A stretch of DNA of 31,116 nt, from the IMG/VR virus record IMGVR_UViG_2690316344_000014; one strand, given 5' to 3'. Position 1 is the stretch's first letter, and each line of letters opens with the position of its first letter. The stretch is from a virus (lineage: Duplodnaviria > Heunggongvirae > Uroviricota > Caudoviricetes). A program made the translations under genes and the position numbers. The notes beneath the pieces are model-generated. The model was not told where the DNA came from and searched no databases. It worked only from the letters and a program-made list of their open reading frames with translations. Below are positions 1 through 20,821 of the stretch, in pieces.

Positions 1-75
1 CCGTCAGTAGCTGAACAGGAGGGACAGCTGATAGAAACAGAAGCCACAGGAGCACCTCAAAAACACCATCATACA

Positions 76-420
76 CTAAATCAGTAAGTTGGCAGCATCA
101 CCAAACTCCCCTTCCGGCGATAACCAGGTAACATTTTCCGGTAACGGACCGAGTTCAGAAATAAATAACGCGTCCCCTGACGCTACGTCATAAACCATTT
201 TACCCCGATGGTCTTCAACGAGATGCCACGATGCCTCATCACTGTTGAAAACAGCCACGAAGCCTGCCGGAATATCTGGCGGTGCAATATCGGTACTGTT
301 TGCTGGCAGACCTGTATGAGGCGGAATATATGCATCACCTTCACCAATAAATTCATTAGTTCCGGCCAGCAGATTATAAATTTTTATGGTCCGTGATTGT
401 TCACTCATTCTGAATGCCAT
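76..420 (-). CDS. tfa: phage tail fibre assembly protein (Tfa), short 114-aa form
   Basis: N-terminus [39 protein letters not shown] matches the lambdoid Tfa family. Its ATG overlaps the stop of the upstream tail-fibre-type ORF by 1 nt (TAATG), the usual stf-tfa coupling. Shorter than the roughly 190-aa typical Tfa, so possibly truncated. Confidence 0.8.
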
Positions 421-2483
421 TATGCAAGCCTCACAATATAGTTAAATGCGATGTTTTTGACGGTGTTTTCCGCGTTACCAGCAGCGTTAACGGTGATGGT
501 GTGTCCATGTGAACCAATCGCAACAGAGTGCGTATGAGCACCAATACCGACAGTATGTGTGTGTGCACCTGCGCTTGCAGCAGTACCCGATACAGAGTGC
601 GTATGAGCGCCTGCAGAAGAAGTGTTAACACTGTATTTAGAATAATCAGGTGATCCACTTCCCGGAGCACCACTGGAACCACCTGAAACAAATGTCATCG
701 AATGGGTATGTGCACCGGCTGAAGCAGCCGTACCGCTAACACTATGGGTATGTGCACCAGTGTTATTCGTGGATTTAGTGCCGTAATCAAACGATGATGT
801 GGTTTTCGTCCCCAAATCCGTACTGGATGCGCTGGCGCTGTGGGTGTGCGATTTAATGCCGTCCTGTTCCTGAGACAATACGGCACGACCACTGGCGGGC
901 TTGCCCTTAATCGTCCAGCCACGCATATCCGTACCAATTTCGGTAAGGTAAACCCCGTTTTTGTTTCGCTTACGTGGCATGCTGGCCACAGGCTTTCCGT
1001 AGACGGATGCCCCTTTAATGGGGATCACCCGGAACAGCCCATGCTTTTTCGAGCGTTCATACACAATGGTCGGGTCAATCCCGCCAGTATCCCAGCAGAT
1101 ACGGGATACCGACATTTCTGCACCATTCCGGCGGATATAGGTTTTATTGATGGCCTCATCCACACGCAGCAGCGTCTGTTCATCGTCGTGGCGGCCCATA
1201 ATAATCTGCCGGTCAATCAGCCAGCTTTCCTCACCCGGCCCCCATCCCCATACGCGCATTTCGTAGCGATCCAGCTGGGAGTCGATACCGGCGGTCAGGT
1301 AAGCCACACGGTCAGGAACGGGCGCTGAATAATGCTCTTTCCGCTCTGCCATCACTTCAGCATCCGGACGTTCACCGATTTTCGCTTCCCACGTCTCACC
1401 GAGCGTGGTGTTCACGAAGGTTTTACGTTTTCCCGTATCCCCTTTCGTCTTCATCCAGTCTTTGACAATCTGCACCCAGGTGGTGAACGGACTGTACGCC
1501 GTCCAGATGTGAAAGGTCACGCTGTCCGGCGGCTCAATCTCTTCACCGGATGACGAAAACCAGAGAATGCCATCACGGGTCCAGATCCCGGTCTTTTCGC
1601 AGATATAACGGGCATCAGTGAAGTCCAGCTCCTGCTGGCGGATGACGCAGGCATTATGTTCGCAGAGATAAAACACGCTGGAGGGATCATCCGGCGTCCA
1701 TTTGAGGCCAAACGGCGTCTCTTTATCGCCAAATTTAAGGTACTGCTCCTCCCCGCAGTGCGGGCAGGCAACATGAAAACGCATAAAATGCGGGGATTCA
1801 CTGGCTGCACGCTCAATCTGACAGGTGCCTCTCACTTTGGGCGTGGAGCCACGGATGGACTTTGGCCAGACCGAGCCTTCAATACGCTTGTCACCCAGGA
1901 ACGTCGGAGAGCCTTCCTGTTCAATATCATCATCAAAAGCAGCAAGTTCATCATAACCCGCCACATCCACCGACTTTTCACGGTAGTTTTTTGCCGCTTT
2001 ACCGCCCAGGCACCAGAAGCCACGCCCATTAGTGAAACGCTTCATGGTGAGCGTGTTATCCCGGTGCTTTTTGCCATACCACGGGGCCAGCGCCAGCAGC
2101 GACGGAATATCACGAATAGTCGGCTCAACGTGGGTTTTCATAAAGTTCTCGGCATCACCATCCGTCGGCAACCAGATAAGGGTGTTGCGCTGCTTATGCT
2201 CTATGAAGTAGGCATAAACACCCAACAGCATTTTGGAATAACCGACACGGGCAGACTTCACCACATTCACCTCACGGATGTAGTCGCTGCCCATCGCATT
2301 CATGATGGCCCGCTGAAAGGGCAGTGTTTCCCAGCGCCCTTCCTGGTATGCGGATTCTTTCGGGAGATAGTAATTGGCATCCGCCCATTCAACGGCGGTC
2401 TGTGGCTCCGGCCTGAACAGTGAGCGAAGCCCGGCGCGGACAAAATGCCGCAGCCTGTTAACCTGACTGTTCGATATATTCAC
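420..2483 (-). CDS. chimeric ORF: terminase large subunit (lambda gpA-like) N-terminal ~557 aa fused in frame to a side tail fibre C-terminus (deletion remnant)
   Basis: The first ~557 residues ([43 protein letters not shown] ... VYLTEIGTD) follow lambda gpA as I remember it. From about nt 812 downward the frame continues into Gly/His-rich repeats ([20 protein letters not shown]) and ends ...[28 protein letters not shown], the lambda Stf C-terminus. Confidence 0.85.
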
Positions 2484-3003
2484 TCAGCAACCCCGGTATC
2501 AGTTCATCCAGCGCGGCTGCTTTGTTCATGGCTTTGATGATATCCCGTTTCAGGAAATCAACATGTCGGTTTTCCAGTTCCGGAAAACGCCGCTGCACCG
2601 ACAGGGGGATCCCGTCGAGAATACTGGCAATTTCACCTGCGATCCGCGACAGCACGAAAGTACAGAATGCGGTTTCCACCACTTCAGCGGAGTCTCTGGC
2701 ATTTTTCAGCTCCTGTGCGTCGGCCTGCGCACGCGTAAGTCGATGGCGTTCGTACTCAATAGTCCCTGGCTGGAGATCTGCCTCGCTGGCCTGCCGCAGT
2801 TCTTCAACTTCCCGGCGCAGCTTTTCGTTCTCAATTTCAGCATCCCTTTCGGCATACCATCTTATAACGGCGGCAGAGTCATAAAGCACCTCATTACCCT
2901 TGCCACCGCCTCGCAGAACGGGCATTCCCTGTTCCTGCCAGTTCTGAATGGTACGGATACTCGCACCGAAAATGTCAGCCAGCTGCTTTTTGTTGACTTC
3001 CAT
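2458..3003 (-). CDS. nohD: terminase small subunit Nu1
   Basis: 181 aa, [39 protein letters not shown]..., matching lambda Nu1 essentially along its length. Its 3' end overlaps the terminase A start, as in lambda. Confidence 0.9.
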
Positions 3004-3192
3004 TGTTCATTCCACGGACAAAAACAGAGAAAGGAAACGACAGAGGCCAAAAAGCCCGTTTTCAGCACCTGTCGTTTCCTTTCTTTTCAGGGGGTATTTT
3101 AAATAAAAACATTAAGTTACAACGAAGAAGAACGGAAATGCCTTAAACCGGAAAATTTTCATAAATAGCGAAAACCCGAGAGGTCGCCGCCC
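3003..3192. other. cos region: cosN cohesive-end sequence at 3181-3192, cosB between cosN and nu1
   Basis: Reverse complement of 3181-3192 is GGGCGGCGACCT, the lambda 12-nt cohesive end. The flanking sequence resembles the lambda left end upstream of Nu1. Confidence 0.75.
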
Positions 3193-3391
3193 CGTAACCT
3201 GTCGGATCGCCGGAAAGGACCCGCAAAATGATAATAATTATCATCTATATGTCACAACGTGCATCTACGCCATCAAACCACGTCAAATAATCAATTATGA
3301 CGCAGGTATCGTATTAATTGATCTGCATCAACTTAACGTAAAAACAACTTCAGACAATACAAATCAGCGACACTGAATACGGGGCAACCTC

Positions 3392-3586
3392 ATGTCAACG
3401 AAGAACAAAACCCGCAGAACAACAACCCGCAACATCCGCTTTCCTAACCAAATGATTGAACAAATTAACATCGCTCTTGAGCAAAAAGGGTCCGGGAATT
3501 TCTCAGCCTGGGTCATTGAAGCCTGCCGTCGGAGACTAACGTCAGAAAAGAGAGCATATACATCAATCCAGAGTGATGATGGATGA
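3392..3586 (+). CDS. small lambda right-arm protein (orf64-like), probable ribbon-helix-helix DNA binder
   Basis: 64 aa, MSTKNKTRRTTTRNIRFPNQMIEQINIALEQKGSGNFSAWVIEACRRRL. It sits beside cos as the lambda orf-64 homologue does; possibly ylcI of DLP12. Confidence 0.6.
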   Translation: MSTKNKTRRTTTRNIRFPNQMIEQINIALEQKGSGNFSAWVIEACRRRLTSEKRAYTSIQSDDG

Positions 3587-3948
3587 ACATCCCGGTTTCT
3601 TCCACCATCGCACCGGAAAAGCGACTATGAGGGTAACCCTGCGTCTGTCAGCACAGTAAAACCCGGTGTGCATCGTTTTTGATTATTCCCGCACACTCAC
3701 GCAGAAGGAATTCCCCGTCGGGCTACGGTCATGGTTAATGCGGGAATACGGCGACGATACAGCGCAGCTAAAAGGGTAATAGACGGATAGACCGGTTTAT
3801 TTCATTCCACAGGATTCTGAGTGTCCCCAACTTCCTCCAATAGTCTGAGCGTACACCTATATAGTTTTAATTTTCATCAATCCATTTAACTATCGTTTAA
3901 TTGTTGTCACATAGGATTCTGCCGTTTTTAACAATGCAGGATAATAAG

Positions 3949-4242
3949 ATGAAAAAAATGTTGTTTTCTGCCGCTCTGGCAATGCTTATTACAGGATGTG
4001 CTCAACAGACGTTTACTGTTGGAAACAAACCGACAGCAGTAACACCAAAGGAAACCATCACCCATCACTTCTTCGTTTCGGGAATTGGACAGGAGAAAAC
4101 TGTTGATGCAGCCAAAATTTGTGGCGGCGCAGAAAATGTTGTTAAAACAGAAACCCAGCAAACATTCGTAAATGGATTGCTCGGTTTTATTACTTTAGGC
4201 ATTTATACTCCGCTGGAAGCGCGTGTGTATTGCTCACAATAA
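3949..4242 (+). CDS. borD: Bor lipoprotein (serum-resistance moron)
   Basis: Internal start MKKMLFSAALAMLITGCAQQTF gives a 97-aa product with a lipobox (LITGC) that matches lambda Bor. It is oriented opposite to the lysis genes, as in lambda. Confidence 0.9.
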   Translation: MKKMLFSAALAMLITGCAQQTFTVGNKPTAVTPKETITHHFFVSGIGQEKTVDAAKICGGAENVVKTETQQTFVNGLLGFITLGIYTPLEARVYCSQ

Positions 4243-4273
4243 TTGCATGAGTTGCCCATCGATATGGGCAGCT

Positions 4274-4735
4274 CTATCTGCATTGCTCATTAATATACTT
4301 CTGGGTTCCTTCCAGTTGTTTTTGCATAGTGATCAGCCTCTCTCTGAGGGTGAAATAATCCCGTTCAGCGGTGTCTGCCAGTCGGGGGGAGGCTGCATTA
4401 TCCACGCCGGAGGCGGTGGTGGCTTCACGCACTGACTGACAGACTGCTTTGATGTGCAACCGACGACGACCAGCGGCAACATCATCACGCAGAGCATCAT
4501 TTTCAGCTTTCGCATCAGCTAACTCCTTCGTGTATTTTGCATCGAGCGCAGCAACATCACGCTGACGCATCTGCATGTCAGTAATTGCCGCGTTCGCCAG
4601 CTTCAGTTCTCTGGCATTTTTGTCGCGCTGGGCTTTGTAGGTAATGGCGTTATCACGGTAATGATTAACAGCCCATGACAGGCCGACGATGATGCAGATA
4701 ACCAGAGCGGAGATAATCGCGGTTACTCTGTTCAT
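4274..4735 (-). CDS. rzpD: Rz i-spanin
   Basis: From the internal Met, [55 protein letters not shown]..., near-identical to lambda Rz and immediately downstream of the lysozyme gene. Confidence 0.9.
4333..4515 (-). CDS. rzoD: Rz1 o-spanin lipoprotein, embedded in Rz in the +1 frame
   Basis: 60 aa, [24 protein letters not shown] with a lipobox and a proline-rich stretch ([13 protein letters not shown]). Fully nested inside Rz, the lambda Rz/Rz1 architecture. Confidence 0.85.
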
Positions 4736-5229
4736 TGCTGACCCCACAAACAGATTTCACGCTCAATCTCACGACGAGTCATGAGACCTTTCCATTGCTT
4801 ACCGCCAGCATATGTCCAGCGACGTAGCTGATCACATGCGCCTTTGATATCGCCCTGGTTTATTTTGCGAAGAAGCGTCGATGTTCTGAAATTGCCAGCA
4901 CCCACGTTGTAAACGAATGAGTAAAGAGCGCCGCGCATTGTTTCCGGTATATCGACTTTGATGTACGGGTTAATTTGTCTGGCGACCGTGGCAAGGTCTT
5001 TATTCAGGAGGGCTTTGCATTCTGCTTTGGTATACGTTTTACCGAGCATGATGTCTTTTCCTGTATGCCCGTGACATACAGTCCATACACCAACAATATC
5101 TTTGTATGGTATGTAGCTGACACCTTCCAGACCATCGTTACCACTTGGGCCAGTAATTAACACTGATGCTATAGCAATTGCTCCGCCACCAATAGCAGCA
5201 GCAACGGCTTTTCGTAATGATGGAGGCAT
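4732..5229 (-). CDS. rrrD: phage lysozyme (endolysin) with N-terminal hydrophobic signal-anchor-release-like segment
   Basis: 165 aa with a hydrophobic N-terminus ([20 protein letters not shown]) followed by lysozyme-family sequence ([16 protein letters not shown]). Sits between holin and Rz. Confidence 0.85.
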
Positions 5230-5444
5230 TATTCACCTCTCGCAGCCTTGCGCTTATCTTCTTTAATCTTGAAATAAAGGTTTGTCAGGTACGTCAGCAG
5301 GCCAAATACCAGGCTACCCAGCACACCTATTGCTGCCCACTGTGAGGGCGTGACTTTATCGAGCAGCTGTAAAAACCAGTAACCGGCACTACCTGCTGAG
5401 GTGCCATAGGCGACACCCGTTGTTAACTTATCCATGGATTTCAT
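5229..5444 (-). CDS. essD: holin
   Basis: 71 aa from the internal start [33 protein letters not shown]..., with transmembrane segments. Its stop overlaps the lysozyme start. Confidence 0.8.
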
Positions 5445-6032
5445 AACCCCACCTCGCAGACAAAGCGGGTGTAAATTGAGGGAATACAACGTATCGCAAA
5501 AAAGCAGAAACGTAACAGACTCGGAGTCAGTGAATAACTCAGGTATTGAGTTATCAGCTAATATCGAGACTCAAAAAATGGAAAAACCAGCTCGACGGCG
5601 GGTTAAGCTGTGTGACGAAGTAACCACTCTTAACAGCATAACCAATTTTTTACGTACGTAAACCACTGAATGATATTTATGAGAATGCTACCGAGTGTTC
5701 AAAACACCACCACAAATACATAAGAAAACCTCAACAAATAACCAACAAATAATTTCCAGTGTTATTTTTAGCCGATTTAAATTGAACCTTCAAATTATAG
5801 AGCACTTATAAATAACAGCCGTTAATATAAATTGGCTAATAGATTTATTTTTATTCAGCCAAGAGCTATGAATAGGATTCGATAGAAAAAAGTTCAGATA
5901 AAAATAGAGATCTACTTCACAAATCAAACGAGAAACCAAAACTTACATCTTGAAATAATCACATTGATTAGATGAATATTTATCGCGCAGTGACATCATT
6001 TTTTAATAATAGTTCAAAAAAAAGGGCTCACG

Positions 6033-7130
6033 ATGAAAAAATTAACAGTGGCAATTTCTGCTGTAGCTGCATCAGTACTGATGGCGATGTCTGCTCAGGC
6101 AGCTGAAATTTATAATAAAGACAGTAACAAGCTGGATCTGTACGGGAAAGTTAATGCCAAGCACTACTTCTCCTCTAATGATGCAGATGATGGTGATACT
6201 ACTTATGCCCGTCTTGGCTTCAAAGGTGAAACCCAAATCAACGATCAACTGACTGGTTTCGGTCAGTGGGAATATGAATTCAAAGGCAACCGCGCTGAAT
6301 CTCAAGGTTCCTCCAAAGACAAAACCCGTCTTGCATTTGCAGGCCTGAAATTCGGTGACTACGGCTCAATCGATTACGGCCGTAACTACGGTGTAGCATA
6401 CGACATCGGTGCGTGGACTGACGTTCTGCCAGAATTCGGTGGCGATACCTGGACCCAAACAGATGTGTTCATGACTGGTCGCACCACTGGTGTTGCAACC
6501 TATCGTAACAACGACTTCTTTGGTCTGGTTGATGGTCTGAACTTTGCTGCTCAGTACCAAGGCAAAAACGATCGTAGCGATTTCGATAACTACACTGAAG
6601 GTAACGGTGATGGCTTCGGTTTCTCTGCTACCTATGAATACGAAGGATTCGGTATCGGTGCAACTTATGCGAAATCTGATCGTACCGACACTCAAGTTAA
6701 TGCAGGGAAAGTTCTTCCTGAAGTATTTGCTTCCGGTAAAAATGCAGAAGTTTGGGCCGCAGGTCTGAAATATGACGCTAACAACATTTACCTGGCCACT
6801 ACCTATTCTGAAACCCAGAATATGACTGTATTTGCTGATCACTTCGTTGCTAATAAAGCCCAAAACTTCGAAGCTGTTGCACAATATCAGTTCGATTTCG
6901 GTCTGCGTCCGTCCGTTGCTTACCTGCAATCTAAAGGTAAAGATCTTGGAGTATGGGGCGATCAGGACTTAGTCAAATATGTTGATGTAGGTGCAACCTA
7001 TTACTTCAACAAAAATATGTCTACTTTCGTTGATTACAAAATCAACCTGCTTGACAAAAATGACTTCACTAAAGCACTCGGTGTAAGCACTGATGACATC
7101 GTTGCTGTAGGTCTGGTTTACCAGTTCTAA
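6033..7130 (+). CDS. nmpC: outer membrane porin NmpC (OmpC/OmpF family), intact
   Basis: 365 aa, signal peptide [23 protein letters not shown] followed by [16 protein letters not shown] and C-terminal ...VGLVYQF, a classic general-porin signature. AT-rich upstream region; lies between Q and the lysis cassette in the opposite orientation. Confidence 0.9.
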
Positions 7131-7139
7131 TCTGATTAC

Positions 7140-7180
7140 GAAAAAGATATGTTGCGGGAGGCGTTGCCTCCCCAACATAT
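7140..7180 (-). terminator. near-perfect ~15-bp-stem hairpin followed by T-run on the minus strand (candidate tR'-like terminator downstream of Q)
   Basis: ATATGTTGCGGGAGGC-GTT-GCCTCCCCAACATAT at 7147-7180. On the minus strand it is followed by CTTTTTC. Confidence 0.4.
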
Positions 7181-7267
7181 AAGTGGCTCCCTCAAGCCAC
7201 TTCCTTTAGAAGCACAACCTTGCTTCTAACTATATAAACCTTCTGTTATATATTACCCTTTATTTTT

Positions 7268-7300
7268 GGGGGCGTCTCAACGCCCCATTTTTAATAATTT
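7268..7300 (+). terminator. rho-independent terminator (nmpC 3' region)
   Basis: GGGGCG-tctcaa-CGCCCC followed by ATTTTTAATAATTTTT on the plus strand. Confidence 0.5.
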
Positions 7301-7319
7301 TTAGTAAACAATTGGCATA

Positions 7320-7703
7320 TTAATTAGAGTTATTAACAACGATATCCATCTCTAACCGGATATCTAATGCCATTAACATCCCTTCAATTATGCCCTCAGC
7401 CTTCTGTAACCTTTTCCCGATATAACCATCAGAGCAGCAATGCTTACCTGCCAGTGACATGAATGTCATACCGACTACATAATAATCTACTAATAAATCG
7501 TGCAAATCGCTGTTGTTCTTTTTCAGACGGGCCATGCACCCGCAAATGATCATCGCGTCATCGTCACAACATTGCGGGCGAGATTTTACTTTTGAAGGAA
7601 TTAATCCCTTAAAACCGGCGGCAATGGACGACCAGGTCACATCTTCATGATTATTAGCCGCCCACGCTCCCCAACGCTCAAGAACCATCTGAATATCACG
7701 CAT
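7320..7703 (-). CDS. quuD: late-gene antiterminator Q
   Basis: [60 protein letters not shown], cysteine-rich Q family. Sits upstream of the lysis cassette. The ORF can extend to 7718 (MWSKL...). Confidence 0.8.
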
Positions 7704-7788
7704 CAACTTACTCCACAAAAATCAGACCAGAACGCCAATCACAAGCAAAAATCAACAAAACAGTATTAGTTGATTGTTATCTCTGACT

Positions 7789-7929
7789 TCATACTCCTGC
7801 TCCTGTCAGGGTTTTGGCGTAATTCTTCAGTATTCGGTAATCGGTCAAAACAGAACCGGGGAAACGATATAAGCGCAGATGCCCCCAGCGGTGGCGAAGA
7901 AGTTCTGCCATATAAAACTCAAACATCAT
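7789..7929 (-). CDS. ylcG: small prophage protein YlcG-like (46 aa)
   Basis: Found by hand below the ORF-track length cut-off: [46 protein letters not shown]. Its start overlaps the rusA stop, between rusA and Q. Confidence 0.55.
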
Positions 7930-8288
7930 TCATTCCCCATTTCGGTGATGGTCAGTTCCAGCCTCCCACCTTTGGTAACGGGCATCTTCACAACGCGGTA
8001 ATCAACGACCTGAGCATCATCCAGCCAGAAACCTGCTTTAGTGAGTGCGTCAAAAGCGGCTTTTTGCAGATTATCCAGGTCACGGCGACGGCGATCCGGC
8101 ATGTGGCACTCAATGCGGATTTTCACAGGCATAGCCAGGCCGATATCCAGCATTGCGTTTTTAATGATTCGGGCGACGTTATCGCGGTATGCCTGCCCCT
8201 CTGCGCTGATGTGCGTGCGCCCGCGATTATGGCGGTAATAGCGATTATTGCTCGGAGGCCAGGGTAATGTGATGCTGTAGGTATTCAC
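7926..8288 (-). CDS. rusA: Holliday junction resolvase RusA
   Basis: 120 aa, [26 protein letters not shown] ... [26 protein letters not shown], the RusA family. Confidence 0.9.
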
Positions 8289-8575
8289 GCCTTAATAACC
8301 CCCTCTTTCAGCCAGATAACCTGTGTTCTCGCCATACCTTCCAGCGCGCATTCTTTTGCATATGCAGCATCGACAAAATGTGTGCGGCGGTCGATTTCGT
8401 CGTGGCAGGCAGAACATGCAATGGTGGCAATCAGGTCTGGCGGTTTGATACCGGTACCGCACAATCCAGCCAGCCGGATATGTGCCAGTACAGACGTTTC
8501 AGGGTTGCCATTACATACGCCAGGGATTCTTACCTGGCATTCCCGACCACGCGCTGCTTTTCTCAAATCAGCCAT
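8285..8575 (-). CDS. ybcO: YbcO-like prophage protein (putative nuclease, Cys-rich)
   Basis: 96 aa from the internal start [47 protein letters not shown]. Position between ninE and rusA matches DLP12. Confidence 0.75.
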
Positions 8576-8738
8576 GACTCCTCCTTGCTGCCAGTCGCAA
8601 CCATTTTTTATCAACCAAGCTGGCGGTATATCCGAGCAGTGTTGGTATTTCGGATGGCTTCAGCTCAGGTTTACGCTTACGACGATTTGGTACTCTGTAG
8701 ATGTGTCCGTTCATGACACGAATAAGCGGTGTAGCCAT
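8568..8738 (-). CDS. ninE: NinE
   Basis: 56 aa from the internal start [53 protein letters not shown]-type overlap with the upstream gene. Confidence 0.75.
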   Translation of the reverse strand: MATPLIRVMNGHIYRVPNRRKRKPELKPSEIPTLLGYTASLVDKKWLRLAARRSHG

Positions 8739-9193
8739 TACGCCTCCTGCTTGTCGCGCAGCAGCTGAAACTCGCAGCTCTGTGGAATAGTCAGGTGGCA
8801 ACCAATATTCATCGCCCAGGCTTCAACCTTACACAGGAAGACATACATCTCTCCGGTATCAAGATCGGAGGTATGGCGTAACGACTGGATAGTGGTGATA
8901 TCACCGGTTACGACATCAACCAGGTCTTTGGTTTCATAACCGAGATATGTGTGTTTGAGAGCATCTTTTACCCAAGCTGGAGTAGCGAACGTTTTACCCT
9001 TGCTGATGAGGTATTCACTGATTTCGCTGTACCACATGTGGCTGAGTGCATTCTGGGAAAGACTGCGTCTCTCGCGCCACGGTTTAAGCACCATGCGAAA
9101 GCATTTGCCTTCCTCCAGATAAGGCTGGATCTGCTGGCCGATAGCGGTGAAGTTGCCGCGATGTAATTTGATGCCGTCTTGTGGGAGGTTCAC
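8738..9193 (-). CDS. ybcN: YbcN-like prophage protein
   Basis: 151 aa, [55 protein letters not shown]. Position matches DLP12 ybcN. Confidence 0.75.
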
Positions 9194-9315
9194 GCTTCAC
9201 CTCCGCAGAGGTCAAACGCTAGATGCAAAGAATTGCAGGTGCATTTCTGCATCTGTGAAAGGAGAAGATAGTTTGGATTGTATGTGCGCATAAACGTCCC
9301 CGTTTAGCGCAGAAG

Positions 9316-9344
9316 TCACCGGAGTTGTTCAGGCTCCGGTGACA
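9316..9344. terminator. perfect 10-bp-stem hairpin between ybcM and ybcN
   Basis: GTCACCGGAG-ttgttcagg-CTCCGGTGAC, about 65 nt downstream of the ybcM stop. No strong T-run on either side, so its function is uncertain. Confidence 0.3.
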
Positions 9345-9407
9345 TAATTATGCCGTGTTGATTTCCCAAAATCAAAATCGATAGAATTGCTCCTTCTTAA
9401 AACACTT

Positions 9408-10205
9408 TTACTCTCTGGAAGCTTTTCTTATCTCTCTTGGTGTTATATTAAAACGATTATGAAATCTTTCAGTAAAACGAGAAGGACACTTATAACCATT
9501 TTCTCTGGCAATCTCGCTTATAGGTTTTACCGTCGTTTGTATAGCAGACAACGCATTATTTAACCTCACATCGTCCAGTATACTTTGGAAACTTACCCCC
9601 TCGCTTGCTAGACGGCGATGTAATGTAGAAACAGAAATGTAGAGATATCGAGCAACCTTGTTTGCTGTCCATTTTGTGCCGGGTTCGGATAGCAGCAGGT
9701 TATAACAACGACTTATCAATGATTGTTTACTATATGATAAAAGTAAATGATTAACATGATTCACTCCTAACGAAAGTAGAACGCCCATTGCTAAGTGCTC
9801 CTGAATTTTAGTTGAGAAGCCTCGGGAAACAGATGTTTTTAGTTGCTCCCAACAATATATTAACTCAGGATTCTGAGGTAAAAAGAAACTTGTTTTGTTA
9901 CGTATTTGATCAGTTACCGTATAAAGTTTTTGGAAACTCTCAATTAAATCAATGGGTAAGTAAAGCATTTCTGCAAGATAAAGCCCTGCTTCAGGATAAT
10001 TCTCAATATAAAATTCATAACCACAAGGAAATAATATTATTTGATTATTATCAACAGTTAAAGTATGCGTCTCCCAATTGATAACTTTCTTTCCCTGACG
10101 GATACGACACAAAGCTGGCATAAGAGGCTTAACCCTATGAATCTCATGATGTTTATGCATCCGTATTTCTTCGATCTTTAAGTTAGTCTTACCTCTTGCC
10201 AGCAT
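9408..10205 (-). CDS. ybcM: AraC-family transcriptional regulator
   Basis: 265 aa with a C-terminal AraC-type HTH region ([43 protein letters not shown] ... [28 protein letters not shown]). Confidence 0.85.
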
Positions 10206-10214
10206 ACTCTCACC

Positions 10215-10766
10215 CTACTTTATCTCATAAACTGGTGTTATCTCAGCGGTTGCGATTTTATTAGCATTAAGCATATAACCAACTAACGCTCCGCTGGAGT
10301 TAGAATCTACAGGAATCTTTTCAGTTTTTAGAGCCCATACTTTAAACTGGTAATGATGTGGTTTATCTCCTTTAGGAGGACATGCGCCACCAAACCCAGC
10401 ATAGCCAAAATCATTTCGGCCTTGAACAGCACCAGTCGGCAGTTTTGTTCCATCACGTCTCCCTGCATCAACGGGCAAATATGTTACTGTTGCTGGAATA
10501 TTAACAACAGTCCAATGCCACCAACCACTGCCTGTAGGTGCATCTGGATCATATACAGTTACGGCAAAGCTTTTGGTACCTTCAGGAACACCAGACCAGG
10601 TTAATGAGGGCGATGTATTACCACCTTCACACCCAAATCCAGAAAAGACATGAGACGTTGTAAGTTGCTCTCCTGTTTTTATTTCATTACTAGTGACCTG
10701 AAATGCTGCAGCCTGCGCAGAAAATGTTATGAATGCCAATACAGTTGAAACGATAAGTGTTTTCAT
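10215..10766 (-). CDS. ybcL: periplasmic YbcL-like protein (phosphatidylethanolamine-binding / Raf-kinase-inhibitor-like family)
   Basis: 183 aa with signal peptide MKTLIVSTVLAFITFSAQAAAFQV and a conserved PDAPTGSGWWHWTV motif. Confidence 0.85.
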   Translation of the reverse strand: MKTLIVSTVLAFITFSAQAAAFQVTSNEIKTGEQLTTSHVFSGFGCEGGNTSPSLTWSGVPEGTKSFAVTVYDPDAPTGSGWWHWTVVNIPATVTYLPVDAGRRDGTKLPTGAVQGRNDFGYAGFGGACPPKGDKPHHYQFKVWALKTEKIPVDSNSSGALVGYMLNANKIATAEITPVYEIK

Positions 10767-10982
10767 AAAAACCTCTTTGTTATGACCTATCGTTATTTTA
10801 TTTGATATTCCTTTATCTCATTATGCATAAAGGCGCAATGTTCATGCAAAAGCAATCACAATTGTACCCCCAACCCAATTATTTGCCACAATATACACAA
10901 AGCACATTGATACTATCTAAAAACTCTGCTTTATTATTAGTAATACCTACGAAAGTCGGTGTTATTTTTTAACCTACCATTC

Positions 10983-11032
10983 AAAATACGTGACATACAC
11001 CATTTTGCTCATAATAATTTGTCACGTATTTT
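10983..11032. promoter_or_regulatory. 13-bp perfect inverted repeat with 24-bp spacer in the ybcL upstream region
   Basis: AAAATACGTGACA (10983-10995) and TGTCACGTATTTT (11020-11032). Candidate operator; no U-run, so not an obvious terminator. Confidence 0.3.
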
Positions 11033-11230
11033 CAGTATTTGAATCTGCGACCAAGAGTTCTCACCTAACAAATGATTAAGATTGTATAGCTCATTTACTA
11101 CCCCAATACAGCCGTACAAAACTCGCTTGTGGGAGCAAACAAAGTAATTACCCATTAAGTTTCGTCAAAGATAATTAATTCTGTCTTGCACTTTATCACC
11201 ATAGCATAACTTAAAATCCGAGATCATTAT

Positions 11231-12757
11231 TTAGAAATAAATCTCACCATCAACCATATATTTGAGAGCACTTATCGCCTGCTGGGCGGATATTACTTTC
11301 ATTAAAGGATAGTGTTTAAAAACAATGCCATTCATAAAATAGATATCACAGGTTTTATTATCCGTATTAATTATGATTTTTTCGAATGTTTTATAGGCAA
11401 GTGTACGGCATAACTCTCGTCCATTTTTACTGGTTAAGTCAATAGCATAAAAATCACTGAATGAATTTACACCTTTACTCTTCAAAGTTTTCAATGATAC
11501 CGAAGCCCTTCGTAATTCCTTATCTAATAGTCTTATTTTCTCTGCTATAGCGGTAACTTCAGGCGCGACAGACAATGCAACGATTAAATTATTAATTTTC
11601 ATCTGAAGCTCAATAATTTTTAACTCTAAAGTTTCATTAGCATCTTTCTTGTTTTCAACTGGTTGAATTTTGCTACAATTAAAAAGCAATTCATTAATGA
11701 TATTATAATCAACCAAATCTCTTTTTATTGATGGCCTGTCACATCGATGTAATCTTCTCATCGGACAAACATAATAGCCATGCAAACTTCCAGATGCCGC
11801 ATGAACAATCATGGTATTACCACAAGCCTCACACTTCATAACTGTTCGAAGTAGATTTATTAGCATAGGATTCTTGCTACTATTGCTAATACCAAAAGGT
11901 ACCAACCGAATTTCCTGTACAGCGTAAAACAAATCATCTGATATGACTCTGGGATAATAGCCAGCGATTTCACTTATCCCTTTCCCTCTTGCACGATATG
12001 AAGGTACGCATATACCTATCAGAGCTTTATTCGCTAATAATTTTTCAATTACAGAAGGTCCCCATGCACTTTCTTTTCCTGAGAAATTCTTTACAGCATG
12101 ATCATTTAAATACTTGGCTATTGCATTCAATGAGCGCCTTTCCATCCTGAGTTTAAAAATTAGCTCAATAGTTTTCACCCTGTCGGGGTCTGGAACAAAA
12201 GCCGTTCTTTTGTCATCTAAGGAGAGCCATCTCGGACAAGACGCCGTCATAATCGTACCTGATTCCAGTGCATCCTGCCGTTTTTTCTTCCATGATAATT
12301 TAACCCGACTTGACTTTATCTCGCTTTCTTCATTTGCCCTTTGTGCTATAAGTATGGCTTTTATTAATGAATATGGCTCATTCAAAGAGTCAATATTATA
12401 GACTGTATTGTCGCAAAGAGTTATAACATCAATACCGTGATTCAAAATCAATTTCAGACGTTCAATCGCTTCACCGACTTTTTCTCTTGAAAGTCTGTCC
12501 AGACTTTCAACTAACAATGTAGTTCCTGGCAATATATAACCATGCTCTATAGCATCTAAAAATTCCGAAAAAGCTCCTGATTGTGCATGCTTTCCTTTGA
12601 ATGCACTTAATCCTAAATCTTCATATGTTATGGTATCAAGATAATAATCACTATTTACCTTTAACCATTCAGCAATAAGTCTTCTCTGTCGGTTTAATGA
12701 GTCGCCAGACATCTGACCTGGTGATGAAAATCGCATATATGCTATGGCTTTTTTCAT
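11231..12757 (-). CDS. ybcK: large serine recombinase (resolvase/invertase N-domain plus recombinase and zinc-ribbon domains)
   Basis: 508 aa. N-terminal resolvase catalytic region (MKKAIAYMRFSSPGQ ... SLNRQ with the catalytic Ser) and a C-terminal Cys cluster (CEACGNTM ... YYVCP). Position matches DLP12 ybcK. Confidence 0.85.
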   Translation of the reverse strand: MKKAIAYMRFSSPGQMSGDSLNRQRRLIAEWLKVNSDYYLDTITYEDLGLSAFKGKHAQSGAFSEFLDAIEHGYILPGTTLLVESLDRLSREKVGEAIERLKLILNHGIDVITLCDNTVYNIDSLNEPYSLIKAILIAQRANEESEIKSSRVKLSWKKKRQDALESGTIMTASCPRWLSLDDKRTAFVPDPDRVKTIELIFKLRMERRSLNAIAKYLNDHAVKNFSGKESAWGPSVIEKLLANKALIGICVPSYRARGKGISEIAGYYPRVISDDLFYAVQEIRLVPFGISNSSKNPMLINLLRTVMKCEACGNTMIVHAASGSLHGYYVCPMRRLHRCDRPSIKRDLVDYNIINELLFNCSKIQPVENKKDANETLELKIIELQMKINNLIVALSVAPEVTAIAEKIRLLDKELRRASVSLKTLKSKGVNSFSDFYAIDLTSKNGRELCRTLAYKTFEKIIINTDNKTCDIYFMNGIVFKHYPLMKVISAQQAISALKYMVDGEIYF

Positions 12758-13013
12758 GGTGACACCTGCTAACGTATGCTTTTATAAACCTTAGTGGTGG
12801 GATATAATTTTTTGTTTATTTTTTATTTAAAAAGACAATTAAGGTCACATTATCTTGAATATACAACAATAATCGTATTGCAATTTTCTTACGCCATAAT
12901 CTTGAAAGCACAAAAGAATACATAAAAAATAAAGACATTAACAAAAAGCATAAAACGAGGCTCATATAAATATAAGAGCCTCCATATTTTAGTCGTTTAG
13001 AAACAAATTATTT

Positions 13014-13256
13014 TAATGTGGTGTGCTTCGTGACAATAAATTAATAATCAACACACCGGCACAAATCAACATCATGCCTATAATGGCTGGCAGGTCCAGC
13101 CGTTGGCCGAAAAATCCCCATGACAGTAAGCTAATCAGGACAATACCGACTCCTGACCAGATAGCATAAGCAATCCCTGTAGGAATATAAGCCAGCGTCT
13201 GAGCTAATAACCAGAATGATGCACAATAACAAATAATTGTACCAACAGATGGCCAT
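13014..13256 (-). pseudogene. emrE: emrE (small multidrug resistance transporter) 3' fragment, 5' end replaced by IS2
   Basis: Reverse-strand translation gives WPSVGTIICYCASFWLL ... ending LLSRSTPH-stop, the EmrE C-terminal ~80 residues. The reading frame breaks at the IS2 terminal repeat at 13257. Confidence 0.75.
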
Positions 13257-13966
13257 TGGATTTGCCCCTATATTTCCAGACACCTGTTATCACTTAACCC
13301 ATTACTGGCTTGCTGCCGTAGATATTCCCGTGGCGAGCGATAACCCAGTGCACTATGCGGATGCCATTCGTTATAATGCTCGAACGCCTCTGCAAGGTTC
13401 TTTGCTGCCGTTAACCCGTCTGGTTTGGGCATGACACTGATGTAGTCACGCTTTATCGTTTTCACGAAGCTCTCTGCTATGCCGTTACTCTCCGGACTCC
13501 GCACCGCCGTGCTCTTCGGTTCAAGCCCCAACATCCGGGCAAACTGCCGTGTTTCATTAGCCCGGTAGCATGAACCATTATCCGTCAGCCACTCTACTGG
13601 AGACGCCGGAAGCTCGTTGCCGAAGCGGCGTTCCACCGCTCCCAGCATGACGTCCTGTACTGTTTCACTGTTGAAGCCGCCCGTAGTGACCGCCCAGTGC
13701 AGTGCCTCACGGTCACAGCAGTCCAGCGCGAACGTGACTCGCAGTTTTTCTCCGTTATCACAGCGGAACTCGAACCCGTCAGAGCACCATCGCTGATTAC
13801 TTTCTTTCACAGCCACTCTGCCTGTATGTGCCCGTTTCGATGGCGGTACAGCAGGTTTTCGCTCAAGCAACAGCGCATTCTGGCGCATGATCCGGTAAAC
13901 ACGTTTGGCATTGATCGCAGGCATACCATCAAGTTCTGCCTGTCTGCGAAGCAGCGCCCATACCCG
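13257..13966 (-). mobile_element. IS2 partial copy (right end and 3' part of insD only, ~710 bp of ~1.3 kb)
   Basis: Reverse complement of 13257-13300 is the IS2 terminal sequence (...GGGTTAAGTGATAACAGGTGTCTGGAAATATAGGGGCAAATCCA). The InsD C-terminal 218 aa is intact. Similarity to IS2 stops after ...CGCCCATACCCG at 13966, where the lambda gam 3' end begins. Confidence 0.85.
13268..13924 (-). CDS. insD: IS2 transposase InsD, C-terminal fragment (IS3 family OrfB)
   Basis: [53 protein letters not shown] ... [24 protein letters not shown]. The N-terminal third of InsD and all of insC are absent. Confidence 0.85.
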
Positions 13967-14072
13967 TGCGTTTGATGACGATGTTGAGTTTCAGGAGCGC
14001 ATGGCAGAACACATCCGGTACATGGTTGAAACCATTGCTCACCACCAGGTTGATATTGATTCAGAGGTATAA
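13965..14072 (+). pseudogene. gam: gam 3' fragment (last ~35 codons of lambda Gam)
   Basis: Translates as [35 protein letters not shown]-stop, the lambda Gam C-terminus, directly upstream of bet. The 5' part is deleted at the IS2 junction. Confidence 0.8.
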
Positions 14073-14077
14073 AACGG

Positions 14078-14863
14078 ATGAGTACAGCACTCGCAACGCT
14101 GGCTGGGAAGCTGGCTGAACGTGTCGGCATGGATTCTGTCGACCCACAGGAACTGATCACCACTCTTCGCCAGACGGCATTTAAAGGTGATGCCAGCGAT
14201 GCGCAGTTCATCGCATTACTGATCGTTGCCAACCAGTACGGCCTTAATCCGTGGACGAAAGAAATTTACGCCTTCCCTGATAAGCAGAACGGCATCGTTC
14301 CGGTGGTGGGCGTTGATGGCTGGTCCCGCATCATCAATGAAAACCAGCAGTTTGATGGCATGGACTTTGAGCAGGACAATGAATCCTGCACATGCCGGAT
14401 TTACCGCAAGGACCGTAATCATCCGATCTGCGTTACCGAGTGGATGGATGAATGCCGCCGCGAACCATTCAAAACCCGTGAAGGCAGAGAAATCACGGGG
14501 CCGTGGCAGTCGCATCCTAAACGGATGTTACGGCATAAAGCCATGATTCAGTGTGCCCGTCTCGCCTTCGGATTTGCGGGTATCTATGACAAGGATGAAG
14601 CCGAGCGCATTGTCGAAAATACCGCATACACTGCAGAACGTCAGCCGGAACGCGACATCACTCCGGTTAACGATGAAACCATGCAGGAGATTAACACTCT
14701 GCTGATTGCCCTGGACAAAACATGGGATGACGACTTATTGCCGCTCTGTTCCCAGATATTTCGCCGCGACATTCGCGCATCGTCGGAACTGACACAGGCC
14801 GAAGCAGTGAAAGCTCTTGGATTCCTGAAACAGAAAGCCTCTGAACAGAAGGTGGCTGCATGA
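14078..14863 (+). CDS. bet: Red-beta single-strand annealing recombinase Bet
   Basis: 261 aa, [66 protein letters not shown]..., near-identical to lambda Bet over its full length. Confidence 0.95.
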
Positions 14864-15540
14864 CACCGGACATTATCCTGCAGCGTACCGGGATCGACGT
14901 GAGAGCTGTCGAACAGGGGGATGATGCGTGGCACAAATTACGGCTCGGCGTCATCACCGCTTCAGAAGTTCACAATGTGATAGCAAAACCCCGCTCCGGA
15001 AAGAAATGGCCTGACATGAAAATGTCCTACTTCCACACCCTGCTTGCCGAGGTTTGCACCGGTGTGGCTCCGGAAGTTAACGCTAAGGCGCTGGCCTGGG
15101 GAAAACAGTACGAGAACGACGCCAGAGCCCTCTTTGAGTTCACTTCCGGCGTGAATGTTACTGAATCCCCGATCATCTATCGCGACGAAAGTATGCGCAC
15201 CGCCTGCTCTCCCGATGGTTTATGCAGTGACGGCAATGGCCTTGAACTGAAATGCCCGTTTACCTCACGGGATTTCATGAAGTTCCGGCTCGGTGGTTTC
15301 GAGGCCATAAAATCGGCTTACATGGCCCAGGTGCAGTACAGCATGTGGGTGATACGAAAAGATGCCTGGTACTTTGCCAACTATGACCCGCGTATGAAGC
15401 GTGAAGGCCTGCATTATGTCGTGATTGAGCGGGATGAAAAGTACATGGCGAGTTTTGACGAGATGGTGCCGGAGTTCATCGAAAAAATGGACGAGGCACT
15501 GGCTGAAATTGGTTTTGTATTTGGGGAGCAATGGCGATGA
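14860..15540 (+). CDS. exo: lambda exonuclease (Red-alpha)
   Basis: 226 aa, [65 protein letters not shown]..., full-length match to lambda Exo. Start overlaps the bet stop. Confidence 0.95.
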
Positions 15541-15719
15541 AGCATCCTCACGATAATATCCGGGTAGGCGCGATCACTTTCGTCTACTCCGTTACAAAGC
15601 GAGGCTGGGTATTTCCCGGCCTTTCTGTTATCCGAAATCCCCTGAAAGCACAGCGGCTGGCTGAGGAGATAAATAATAAACGGGGAGCTGTATGCACAAA
15701 GCATCTCCCGTTGAGTTAA
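15531..15719 (+). CDS. lambda orf61-like small early protein
   Basis: 62 aa immediately after exo, the position of lambda orf61. Product unknown. Confidence 0.55.
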
Positions 15720-15883
15720 GAACGAGTATCGAGATGGCACATAGCCTCGCTCAAATTGGAGTCAGGTTTGTGCCAATACCAGTAGAAACAGACGAAGAAT
15801 TTCATACGTTAGCCGCATCCCTTTCACAAAAGCTGGAAATGATGGTGGCGAAAGCAGAAGCAGATGAGAGAGACCAGGTATGA
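15692..15883 (+). CDS. lambda orf63-like small early protein
   Basis: 63 aa, [63 protein letters not shown]. Position matches lambda orf63. Confidence 0.55.
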   Translation: MHKASPVELRTSIEMAHSLAQIGVRFVPIPVETDEEFHTLAASLSQKLEMMVAKAEADERDQV

Positions 15884-15959
15884 CAACCACTGAATGCATT
15901 TTTCTGGCAGCGGGCTTCATATTCTGTGTGCTTATGCTTGCCAACATGGGGCTTGTTCA

Positions 15960-16175
15960 ATGACACCTCAGCAAGAAAACGCCCTTCGCAGCATTGCCCG
16001 TCAGGCTAATTCTGAAATCAAAAAAGCCAGACAGCAGTTTCCGGATAAAAACGTCGATGACATTTGCCGTAGCGTACTGAAGAAGCACCGCGAAACGGTA
16101 ACGCTGATGGGATTCACACCGACTCATTTAAGCCTGGCGATCGGCATGTTAAACGGCGTCTTTAAGGAGCGATGA
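15960..16175 (+). CDS. lambda orf60a-like small early protein
   Basis: Internal start MTPQQENALRSIARQANSEIKKARQQFPDKNVDDICRSVLKKHRETVTLMGF...; position matches lambda orf60a. Confidence 0.5.
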   Translation: MTPQQENALRSIARQANSEIKKARQQFPDKNVDDICRSVLKKHRETVTLMGFTPTHLSLAIGMLNGVFKER

Positions 16176-16273
16176 ACATGAAAAGCAAAATCATCAGGGA
16201 GCTACAGGCTCCTTTTTTATTATTCGCATTCACCCTCAAGCGTATTAACCAACAATTCAGGGATTAATGGAAG

Positions 16274-16492
16274 ATGGCAGACATCATTGATTCAGCATCA
16301 GAAATCGAAGAATTACAGCGCAATACAGCAATAAAAATGCGTCGTCTGAACCACCAGGTTATATCTGCCACTCATTGTTGTGAGTGTGGCGATCCCATAG
16401 ATGAACGAAGACGCCTGGCCGTTCAGGGTTGTCGGACTTGTGCAAGTTGCCAGGAGGAGATCGAACTTAAGAACAAACAATGGGGATTGTGA
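16274..16492 (+). CDS. TraR/DksA-family C4 zinc-finger protein (lambda Orf73-like)
   Basis: 72 aa with CxxC-x17-CxxC (CCECGDPIDERRRLAVQGCRTCASC), the TraR/DksA C4-type zinc-finger layout. Phage homologues of this family are known to act on host RNA polymerase. Confidence 0.65.
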   Translation: MADIIDSASEIEELQRNTAIKMRRLNHQVISATHCCECGDPIDERRRLAVQGCRTCASCQEEIELKNKQWGL

Positions 16493-16539
16493 TGGCCTCA
16501 AAGCAGCAAATTTCAACATCGTCCAACTGAGGTGTAAAA

Positions 16540-16818
16540 ATGTTCAGAATCATTTTTCCTAACACCTGGTACGTCGACCACCACGGCACTCCCTGCAAAA
16601 TCCTGCGTTCTACCCACAACAAAGTTCACTACATCCGAAAAGGCAGAACATGTATCGCCAGCATGTTCCGCTTTAATCATGACTTTGAACCTGTGAATAA
16701 AGCTGATGCAGATCGGATAGCAGAAGAGATCGAAACGGCAGAACACATTAAGAAGTTACGTGACATGCGTTCAAAAAGCAGAGGTAACCATGGAATCATA
16801 CAGCCTCACACTCGATGA
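16540..16818 (+). CDS. small Cys/His-rich early-left protein (possibly Ea8.5-like)
   Basis: 92-aa ORF between the TraR-like gene and xis, with several His/Cys residues. Assignment is tentative, from position and size only. Confidence 0.4.
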   Translation: MFRIIFPNTWYVDHHGTPCKILRSTHNKVHYIRKGRTCIASMFRFNHDFEPVNKADADRIAEEIETAEHIKKLRDMRSKSRGNHGIIQPHTR

Positions 16819-17140
16819 GGCCTGTCAGTTTCTCAAGATATCCAGACCTACCGCTACCAACTGGATACGAACAGGCCGCCTACAGGCAACACGCAAAGAC
16901 CCCACTAAACTAAAATCTCCTTACCTCACAACACGACAAGCCTGCATTGCGGCGCTTCAGTCTCCGCTGCATACTGTCCAGGTGAGCGCGGGTGATGGCA
17001 TAACAGAGGAAAGAAAATGTCACTCTTCCGCAGAGGTGAAATATGGTACGCCAGTTTCACATTGCCGAACGGTAAAAGATTTAAACAGTCTCTTGGAACA
17101 AAGGACAAAAGGCAGGCGACAGAACTCCATGACAAGCTAA
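16790..17140 (+). CDS. xis: excisionase (Xis), HTH DNA-binding
   Basis: Internal start with a good SD (GAGGTAACC-ATG): [37 protein letters not shown]. Immediately upstream of int, but overlaps it by ~120 nt, so the true 3' end is uncertain and the gene may be frameshifted. Confidence 0.55.
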
Positions 17141-18180
17141 AGGCTGAAGCATGGCGGGTCAGCAAACTTGGTGAAATACCTGATATAACGTTCGAGGAAG
17201 CGTGTGTCAGGTGGCTTGAAGAGAAAGCACATAAAAAATCACTGGACGATGACAAAAGCCGGATCGGATTCTGGCTTCAACATTTCGCAGGAATGCAACT
17301 AAGAGACATTACTGAATCAAAAATTTATTCAGCAATGCAGAAAATGACGAACCGGCGTAATGAGGAAAACTGGAAACTCAGGGCAGAAGCATGCAGAAAA
17401 AAAGGGAAACCTGTTCCAGAATACAAGCCAAAACCAGCGTCTGTTGCAACGAAGGCTACGCATCTTTCATTTATAAAAGCCCTACTAAGAGCCGCAGAGC
17501 GTGAATGGAAAATGCTGGATAAGGCACCAATTATTAAAGTGCCTCAACCAAAGAATAAACGGATCCGCTGGCTGGAGCCCCATGAAGCACAAAGGCTGAT
17601 TGATGAATGTCCGGAGCCATTAAAGTCTGTTGTTGAATTTGCACTGGCAACAGGCTTAAGACGCTCGAACATCATCAACCTTGAATGGCAACAAATAGAT
17701 ATGCAGCGCCGGGTGGCATGGATAAACCCGGAAGAGAGTAAATCAAACCGCGCAATCGGCGTTGCGCTGAATGATACTGCATGTCGCGTATTGAAAAAAC
17801 AAATCGGGAATCATCACCGTTGGGTATTTGTGTACAAGGAAAGCTGTACCAAACCAGACGGAACGAAAGCGCCAACAGTAAGGAAGATGCGGTATGACGC
17901 AAACACAGCCTGGAAAGCGGCGCTGAGACGGGCTGGTATTGATGATTTCAGATTTCACGACTTGAGACACACCTGGGCAAGTTGGCTGGTTCAAGCCGGA
18001 GTCCCGTTGTCAGTGTTACAGGAAATGGGAGGCTGGGAGTCTATCGAAATGGTTCGTCGATATGCTCACCTTGCACCTAATCACCTTACCGAACACGCAC
18101 GGCAAATAGACTCGATCCTGAACCCATCGGTCCCAAATTTGTCCCAGTCAAAAAATAAGGAAGGTACTAATGATGTGTAA
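17017..18180 (+). CDS. int: prophage tyrosine integrase (DLP12 IntD-like)
   Basis: 387 aa with a C-terminal catalytic region ([42 protein letters not shown], i.e. HxxR ... Y). Ends 15 nt before the tRNA-Thr fragment and is convergent with it. Confidence 0.9.
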
Positions 18181-18194
18181 CTTATTGATTTAAA

Positions 18195-18243: not shown

Positions 18244-18331
18244 TAAATTGATCTTGTAAAATCAATACCTATCGAATTTAAATGGATTTTTTGCCACAAT
18301 ATTGCCACAGTTCGTTAGGAATCAGACAGAA

Positions 18332-19405: not shown

Positions 19406-19414
19406 GGACGTTGT

Positions 19415-20519: not shown

Positions 20520-20539
20520 ATTTAGTTAGCCTCTTCTCA

Positions 20540-20814: not shown

Positions 20815-20821
20815 GCCTAAA

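Follow-up and report, generated by a model that had tools for sequence, protein, structure and literature searches.

The 31,116-nucleotide (nt) stretch IMGVR_UViG_2690316344_000014, referred to here in its whole length as the window, begins at the end of contig CXZL01000026.1 from a short-read draft assembly of Escherichia coli (GCA_001286425.1) and carries a lambda-like prophage with a late region of the DLP12 type. Near its left end lies a chimeric open reading frame (ORF; 420..2483, minus strand) that starts with GTG and codes for 687 residues, gpA(1–519)::Stf(C-terminal 168 residues), in which most of the terminase large subunit is joined to the tip of the side tail fibre. A sequence-only reading of this DNA had described a single 687-residue ORF that starts as lambda gpA and ends as the Stf C-terminus; both points are borne out, by tblastn, by Pfam matches and by alignment to the tail fibre structure 2XGF. 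The identical protein is RefSeq entry WP_077819354.1, reported from 17 E. coli and labelled by NCBI as a 'phage terminase large subunit family protein', and this entry is now shown to be a chimera.

The ORF sits directly after cos and the small terminase gene, in an arrangement much like that of lambda. The cos region (3004..3230, minus strand) has a cosB side near-identical to the lambda left end, and cosN (GGGCGGCGACCT; 3181–3192, minus strand) is identical to that of lambda, with lambda nt 1 corresponding to window 3192. The nu1/nohD gene (2458..3003, minus strand) is intact, with 181 codons and 98.9% identity to lambda Nu1, and it overlaps the start of the fusion ORF by 26 nt, the GTG standing 26 nt before the nu1 stop just as in lambda nu1 and A. 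At the other end, the stop codon of the fusion overlaps the tfa ATG by one base (TAATG), also as in lambda. The coupling to a downstream tfa that had been claimed therefore stands by its TAATG, but the tfa gene itself is not intact: its 5′ part (103..420, minus strand; about 106 codons, with a Caudo_TAP_N match), although translationally coupled to the fusion ORF, is cut by IS1, of which the terminal 102 nt (1..102; 99% identity to K-12 IS1A) also form the contig end. Homology to tfa stops at window 103 in comparisons with lambda, PhiR26_1, K-12 tfaD, tfaQ, TOK-001 and FT130; the listed 114-residue ORF at 76..420 is tfa reading on into IS1, and no intact assembly chaperone gene (tfa) lies downstream of the fusion.

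The gpA-derived part (927..2483, minus strand) covers residues 1–519 at 99.6% amino acid identity to lambda gpA (tblastn) and at 98.2% nucleotide identity to lambda nt 1–2268, and gpA residues 520–641 are missing. In an ungapped alignment to lambda A there are scattered single mismatches up to ORF nt 1558, beyond which the sequences are unrelated. From ORF nt 1555 onwards the sequence is collinear with the stf 3′ end of phage PhiR26_1, and with lambda from nt 21368. This Stf-derived part (420..925, minus strand) comprises the last 168 residues and the stop codon, starting just past the Pfam Collar domain; at the DNA level it matches the stf 3′ end in many lambdoid phages, the best single-piece phage match being one with a 2H10-like variable insert.

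Alignment to lambda A and stf, which the sequence-only reading had proposed as a check, was made with the intact stf of PhiR26_1 and places one clean deletion junction at 926..929 (minus strand), with a 4-nt microhomology GATA. This is about 115 nt from the position near nt 812 that had been suggested, where the first HxH motif starts (812–840). With a slash marking the breakpoint here and below, the gpA context is ...GGTACGGATA/CC and the stf context is ...CCTGATA/TGCG. Because the GAT codons of A (ACG GAT ACC) and stf (CCT GAT ATG) share the same frame, the fusion is in frame, with T-D-M-R at the joint and EIGTD/MRGW... as the product.

The missing DNA corresponds to lambda 2269–21371, about 19.1 kilobases (kb), and takes with it the 3′ end of A, the genes W, B, C/nu3, D, E, FI, FII, Z, U, V, G, T, H, M, L, K, I, J and lom, and about 840 5′ codons of stf. 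In tblastn searches the 31-kb window gave no match to any lambda protein in this list from W to lom, in agreement with the earlier claim that the virion morphogenesis region is deleted; the loss of that whole region likewise supports the claim that the prophage is unable to make particles. The prophage is without a capacity of its own for heads, tails or DNA packaging.

Both parent proteins, lambda gpA and the Stf/Tfa pair (homologues of T4 gp37/gp38), are incomplete in the fusion. Pfam finds a complete GpA_ATPase domain (PF05876; residues 47–285, profile positions 3–237 of 247, E 2e-50) followed by a cut GpA_nuclease domain (PF20454; residues 322–519, profile positions 2–211 of 294) that ends where Stf begins, so that the complete endonuclease domain of a lambda-type terminase is lacking by its last third. 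The last 30–40 or so residues of lambda gpA are the prohead/portal-binding segment; on that assignment it falls within the missing residues 520–641 and is absent from the fusion. Residues 520–687 align end to end with residues 74–242 of the T4 gp37 tip structure 2XGF (E 1.6e-55) and carry seven HxH motifs (at residues 546, 578, 592, 627, 641, 650 and 659; four GAHTHS, one GAHTHT, one KSHTHS and one GSHGHT), which match the seven iron sites of the T4 gp37 needle (PMC6957217). The gp37 domain D10, the 'collar', spans residues 811–881 (PMC6957217); if the 242-residue 2XGF chain is gp37 785–1026, as its length suggests, the fibre fragment would start at about gp37 residue 858, inside D10. No Pfam Collar domain is detected in the fusion ORF, and since the start falls inside D10 and Collar is absent, the fibre fragment is an incomplete structural module. 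Stf is present only as the last 168 of about 1025 residues, lacking the N-terminal tail-attachment part, the shaft and the collar, the tail-attachment end being within the missing N-terminal 840 or so residues.

Related chimeras in K-12 and carriers of the junction

Between 103 and 13256 the window runs collinear with K-12 DLP12 across its late and nin regions at up to 99.5% identity (7064–13256 at 99.5%; cos/nohD/A′ at 97.9%), and includes bor, rzpD, rrrD, essD, an nmpC-type porin gene, quuD, rusA, ybcO, ninE, ybcN, ybcM, ybcL and ybcK. The DLP12-type late synteny quuD-nmpC-essD-rrrD-rzpD-bor-ylcI-cos-nohD-A′ is present, as seen by blastn against K-12 560000–587000 and from gene calls. DLP12 itself (nohD-aaaD′-tfaD′; b0560, b4634, b0561) has the same kind of lesion, a deletion running rightwards from within A, in frame, with the loss of all morphogenesis genes. 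The comparison with K-12 that had been recommended thus recovers the same kind of in-frame remnant, but with a different, nested junction (gpA 1–103::Tfa 51–): the joint runs via TAT from gpA nt 308 (codon 103) into tfa codon 51, without the stf remnant and without 416 further gpA codons. The K-12 tfaD ORF (locus L005, 21355–22098) accordingly begins with gpA residues 62–103 and continues as Tfa from residue 51.

The K-12 prophage Qin (nohA-stfQ-tfaQ-pinQ) also contains an in-frame A′-′stf fusion followed by tfa, although it differs from the window at both breakpoints. In stfQ (locus L006, 6886–7848) gpA codons 1–3 (GTG AAT ATA) run into the last 317 residues of Stf, '...TALTDNTQG', so that the A breakpoint is at codon 3 rather than 519 and the Stf breakpoint about 399 nt upstream of that in the window. 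A third in-frame deletion chimera in K-12, ymfN of e14 (oweE′-aaaE′), is annotated as 'chimeric replication protein/phage terminase', but joins a replication protein to the C-terminal part of a terminase and belongs to another phage type. Judged by their make-up, the annotated 'genes' stfQ and tfaD are deletion chimeras too. In-frame chimeric remnants are therefore already known in the cryptic prophages of K-12, and the window is a less eroded member of the series; its fusion keeps more of A and stf than the K-12 copies do and helps to order the decay steps of DLP12- and Qin-type prophages. In the literature we found nothing specific on aaaD/DLP12, on chimeric terminase-fibre ORFs or on stf deletion hot spots.

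Carriers of the junction were counted with a 301-nt probe across it against 5426 complete E. coli genomes. A single-piece match is present in four, and three more reach 80% coverage only in two pieces. The K-12 DLP12 junction type is far commoner, in up to 368 of the 5426 genomes as against 4–7 for the window type, the K-12 junction-type counts (each up to about 370 genomes) being upper bounds in which some matches are two joined pieces. In TOK-001 the same junction lies in a Qin prophage (cspI...ynfO, nohA, fusion, tfaQ, pinQ, ydfK), and the fusion is intact, with 703 residues and a different fibre-tip insert. In FT130 it lies in a DLP12 prophage adjoining ybcY, appY and ompT, where it is annotated as a pseudogene and a second deletion has joined nohD codon ~137 to gpA codon ~441 at a microhomology GGAT, removing the N-terminal 440 codons; KFu019 and EC50 are annotated in the same way. 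The identical junction thus occurs in three contexts: in Qin, in DLP12 at appY/ompT, and in the window prophage, which has another integrase and no argU.

Reused breakpoints in stf and A

The Stf breakpoint of the window, GAT/ATGCGTGG ('D/MRGW'), is shared by about ten left partners, six of them confirmed on DNA. A protein search with a junction-spanning fragment brought up numerous E. coli proteins that carry the Stf C-terminus behind a different phage protein; this sample sees only in-frame fusions that keep the full tip, and its database entries are not independent isolates. In ten such proteins the foreign part ends within 8 codons of 'MRGW', and in eight of the ten exactly before it; the partners are gpA186, gpK, lysozyme R, a DUF1441 small terminase, a ParB-domain protein, a PF20691 protein, one unassigned protein and an internal deletion of Stf itself. 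On DNA, gpK (in a prophage at the Qin site), R (in a prophage at the bio/uvrB site) and DUF1441 (at the Qin site) all abut ATGCGTGG after GAT, and unbiased DNA scans, which are free of frame bias but small, added gpA102 (locus L151) and J820 (out of frame and 5 nt upstream). The MRGW site is thus joined on DNA to gpA519, gpA102, gpK, lysozyme R, DUF1441 and J820, and at the protein level also to gpA186, the ParB protein, the PF20691 protein and one further protein. The related loci (L009, L011, L012, L151, L089/L163 and L255) include prophages at no fewer than three chromosomal loci. One of them, the Qin-site prophage of L009, has a 427-residue ORF (2700–3983) with GpA_ATPase and Phage_TAC_2 (gpG) Pfam matches, an A′-′G in-frame fusion; this prophage carries both the A′-′G and the K′-′Stf fusions, two separate internal deletions.

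A second Stf site, 'TALTD', still tighter than the first, is cut at GGGTA/ACCGCGCTGAC (GGGTA/ACCGCG), about 399 nt upstream of the MRGW site; by sequence the two sites are GATATGCG and GGGTAACC. It is joined on DNA to E71, Z31, gpA57, gpA3 and a J-like gene, within 1–2 nt and with 0–2 nt of microhomology, and at the protein level also to Nu1-89, a ClpP-type protease, a tape-measure protein and three portal fragments (loci L171, L125/L211, L194, L056/L115 and L112, and stfQ in K-12 L006). The gpA3/TALTD junction of K-12 stfQ is found in both a Qin context, with pinQ downstream, and a DLP12 context, with ybcY downstream.

A set of 237 metagenomic and IMG/VR loci, picked only by the 23-mer just right of the junction, yielded 19 distinct junctions between a lambda late protein gene and stf within 1.5 kb upstream. 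Seven of these 19 are at the two Stf sites, where about 0.1 per 8-nt interval would be expected if junctions were uniform over the 1.5 kb.

Reuse is also seen on the A side. Three right-hand partners occur at gpA nt 307/308: a 'NQNTTG'-type Stf (L254), the MRGW site (L151) and Tfa51 (K-12 L005, 21355–21663); L151 continues into ybcY and appY at 100% identity to K-12 and looks like an immediate relative of the K-12 DLP12 allele. Two partners follow the end at gpA nt ~555, a 'NASVTI'-type Stf (L256) and the MRGW site (L255), and because allele-specific single-nucleotide polymorphisms (SNPs) are common to L255 and L256 left of the junction, their left sides are related by descent.

We tentatively suggest, while holding it somewhat less likely than its opposite, that lambdoid prophages of E. 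coli are truncated again and again at a few nucleotide-precise hot spots (Stf GAT/ATGCGTGG, Stf GGGTA/ACCGCG, gpA nt 307/308 and gpA nt ~555), with new alleles reusing one old endpoint, and that a specific process operates rather than random deletion and drift. One candidate would be a recurrent site-specific nick or break, one side of which is protected, leading to stepwise erosion of the prophage. Another would be processing at the heterology boundary formed when an intact relative pairs with a prophage that bears a deletion, one endpoint being kept and a new partner gained. A preference for GATA(T) microhomology may contribute at the MRGW site, but cannot explain the TALTD site.

Several other causes were examined and set aside. 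Invertases of the Din family (Pin/Gin/Cin) act at a 26-base-pair crossover site with a TTCTCNNAAACCNNGGTTTNNGAGAA-like consensus, and no site matching at 15 or more of 20 positions occurs in the window, in intact stf or in Qin-type loci; the same scan does pick up the two pix sites of e14 (19/20 and 18/20 positions), and an e14 pix site lies about 45 codons upstream of the position equivalent to the MRGW motif. The DNA fold of 80 nt to either side is unremarkable (z = −0.64), which does not favour a hairpin or cruciform, and there are no notable direct or inverted repeats at the breakpoint. Chi-limited RecBCD degradation is not indicated, as neither stf/tfa nor lambda 1–23500 contains Chi in either orientation. 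Selection for a domain boundary does not fit, the breakpoint being inside the T4 gp37 D10 collar, and selection on the protein would not give nucleotide precision. Restriction sites (site 1 has GGTNACC), the gyrase cleavage consensus, MOBP-type nic-like ATCC(C)TG and the type I-E protospacer-adjacent motif were compared by eye, and none fits both hot spots. The natural mosaic boundaries of stf are also elsewhere, the phage homology boundary being about 135 nt upstream of the MRGW ATG and at neither hot spot. We note that in lambdoid phages the shared stf 3′ block starts at this boundary, which is the collar start (L004, ~2869–2878), and that this is the same relative position as that of the pix site in the e14 invertible fibre segment.

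If there is such a mechanism, breakpoint reuse would show how prophages are dismantled stepwise, and would explain the persistent retention of cos-nu1 and stf′-tfa remnants, which are known reservoirs for recombination with infecting phages (PMC3945230). The interest lies in these reused breakpoints; the fusion itself is ordinary cryptic-prophage decay with close K-12 precedents.

Origin and function of the fusion

Very probably the fusion ORF arose incidentally as a lambda-like prophage, its late region of the DLP12 type, decayed. A single illegitimate, microhomology-mediated recombination through GATA would have linked codon 519 of gpA with the stf codon that precedes 'MRGW', removing about 19.1 kb that held the 3′ end of A, the genes from W to J, lom and some 840 5′ codons of stf. 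The GAT shared in frame would have let both remnants read through as one 687-residue ORF that keeps its lambda coupling to nu1 upstream and tfa downstream. Its product would hold the Nu1-binding and ATPase parts of gpA, without the last third of the nuclease and the prohead-binding C-terminus, and a fibre-tip fragment without the tail-attachment end and the collar domain. The retained cos-nu1-A′ and stf′-tfa′ segments can still recombine by homology with the DNA of incoming lambdoid phages or of other cryptic prophages, and such exchange is the likely reason for the same junction at different chromosomal loci, to which it would have spread by homologous recombination.

Two observations weigh against so simple an account. 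The reuse of the Stf breakpoint by many other deletions means that the event may not be a simple random deletion, and the gpA part has few non-synonymous changes, which taken alone could suggest purifying selection after the deletion.

On the first point, we see an even chance that the junction did not arise de novo in this prophage by random deletion, and was instead either imported from another cryptic prophage, by homologous recombination in the A and stf/tfa sequences on its two sides, or derived from an earlier deletion allele through reuse of an existing breakpoint; this is compatible with the account of decay and would refine it. It fits with the presence of the identical junction in TOK-001 Qin, FT130 DLP12 and the window prophage, with the many left partners that abut the Stf end GAT/ATGCGTGG, and with the A side, where three right partners share gpA nt 307/308, L151 looks like a direct relative of the K-12 aaaD/tfaD junction, and L255 and L256 have different right partners beyond their common SNPs and common gpA breakpoint. 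Set against this, with 4 nt of microhomology and no diagnostic SNPs beside the junction, descent and recurrence look alike in the window, and no enzyme or sequence feature was found that accounts for the reuse.

On the second point, the gpA part differs from lambda A by 24 synonymous and 2 non-synonymous codons, and from the TOK-001 copy by 12 and 1. We consider exchange with functional phage alleles the better explanation of this low ratio, because the A allele of the window is nearer to that of the functional phage PhiR26_1 (99.1%) than to that of TOK-001 (98.8%) and because the fibre-tip insert is swapped between copies sharing the junction. Homologous recombination is known to swap the cos/nu1/A region between lambda and DLP12 at high frequency (PMC3945230). 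The reading frame also gives no support to selection for the fusion: only five of the 19 junctions in the sample picked by 23-mer are in frame, which is the chance level for a prior of one in three, and selection for in-frame fusions finds no support, either for this ORF or as a cause of the reused breakpoints.

These results bear on the idea that the fusion is a domesticated protein, either a decoy for Nu1 or cos that poisons the packaging of superinfecting lambdoid phages or a repurposed fibre tip. The ORF is intact here and in TOK-001, has its native translational coupling on both sides and few non-synonymous differences in its gpA part, and 17 E. coli are listed with the very same protein; a domesticated function nevertheless appears very improbable, given the chance-level frame count, the loss of the N-terminal 440 codons and pseudogene annotation in FT130 (KFu019 and EC50 being annotated alike), the IS1 disruption here of tfa, the chaperone gene needed for folding of the fibre tip, the rarity of the junction type (four single-piece matches in 5426 complete genomes) and the start of the fibre fragment inside a structural domain. 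The fusion product is most likely functionless.

An assembly or annotation artefact, with a chimeric contig formed at a repeat, is a near-negligible prospect: the draft contig does end in IS1 about 420 nt from the ORF, and the stf C-terminus is multi-copy in E. coli genomes, but the same junction is found in a single alignment piece in four complete genomes, the exact protein is coded on two contigs and listed by RefSeq for 17 E. coli, and the 4 nt shared at the joint are too few for assembler bridging. Equally far-fetched is a natural terminase variant with histidine-rich C-terminal repeats, which the sequence-only reading had named as the finding that would overturn its own interpretation and which the NCBI family name might encourage, since residues 520–687 are a T4 gp37-like tail-fibre tip over their whole length, their DNA matches stf, and the nuclease domain is cut at that very point.

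The rest of the window

The window prophage is distinct from DLP12 in its integrase and early region, in the absence of argU, in the lack of ybcV/ybcW and in its intact nmpC-type porin gene. DLP12 is integrated at argU with intD; here the integrase region matches at 81% identity over only 369 nt, and there is no tRNA gene in the window. Between ylcI and borD, about 290 nt without a K-12 DLP12 match (3604–3894) replace the 1.28 kb that contain ybcV and ybcW in K-12, and the nmpC-type porin gene between quuD and essD (6033–7130) is intact, with 365 codons and a full-length Porin_1 match, where the K-12 copy is interrupted by IS5.

The early end (13268–18180) is unlike that of K-12 DLP12 and contains an IS2 transposase fragment (13268–13924), bet (14078–14863), an exo-like gene (14860–15540) and a gene for a 387-residue tyrosine integrase (17017–18180) that is not intD. 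A second tyrosine recombinase gene (18302–19405) adjoins the prophage integrase and is followed by genes for TrbL (20822–22225), TrbJ (22404–23198) and a NikA-like protein (23280–23645). From 18302 to 24209 and beyond, the prophage is thus followed in tandem by an element of the integrative conjugative or mobilisable kind, and several ORFs farther on have no family match.

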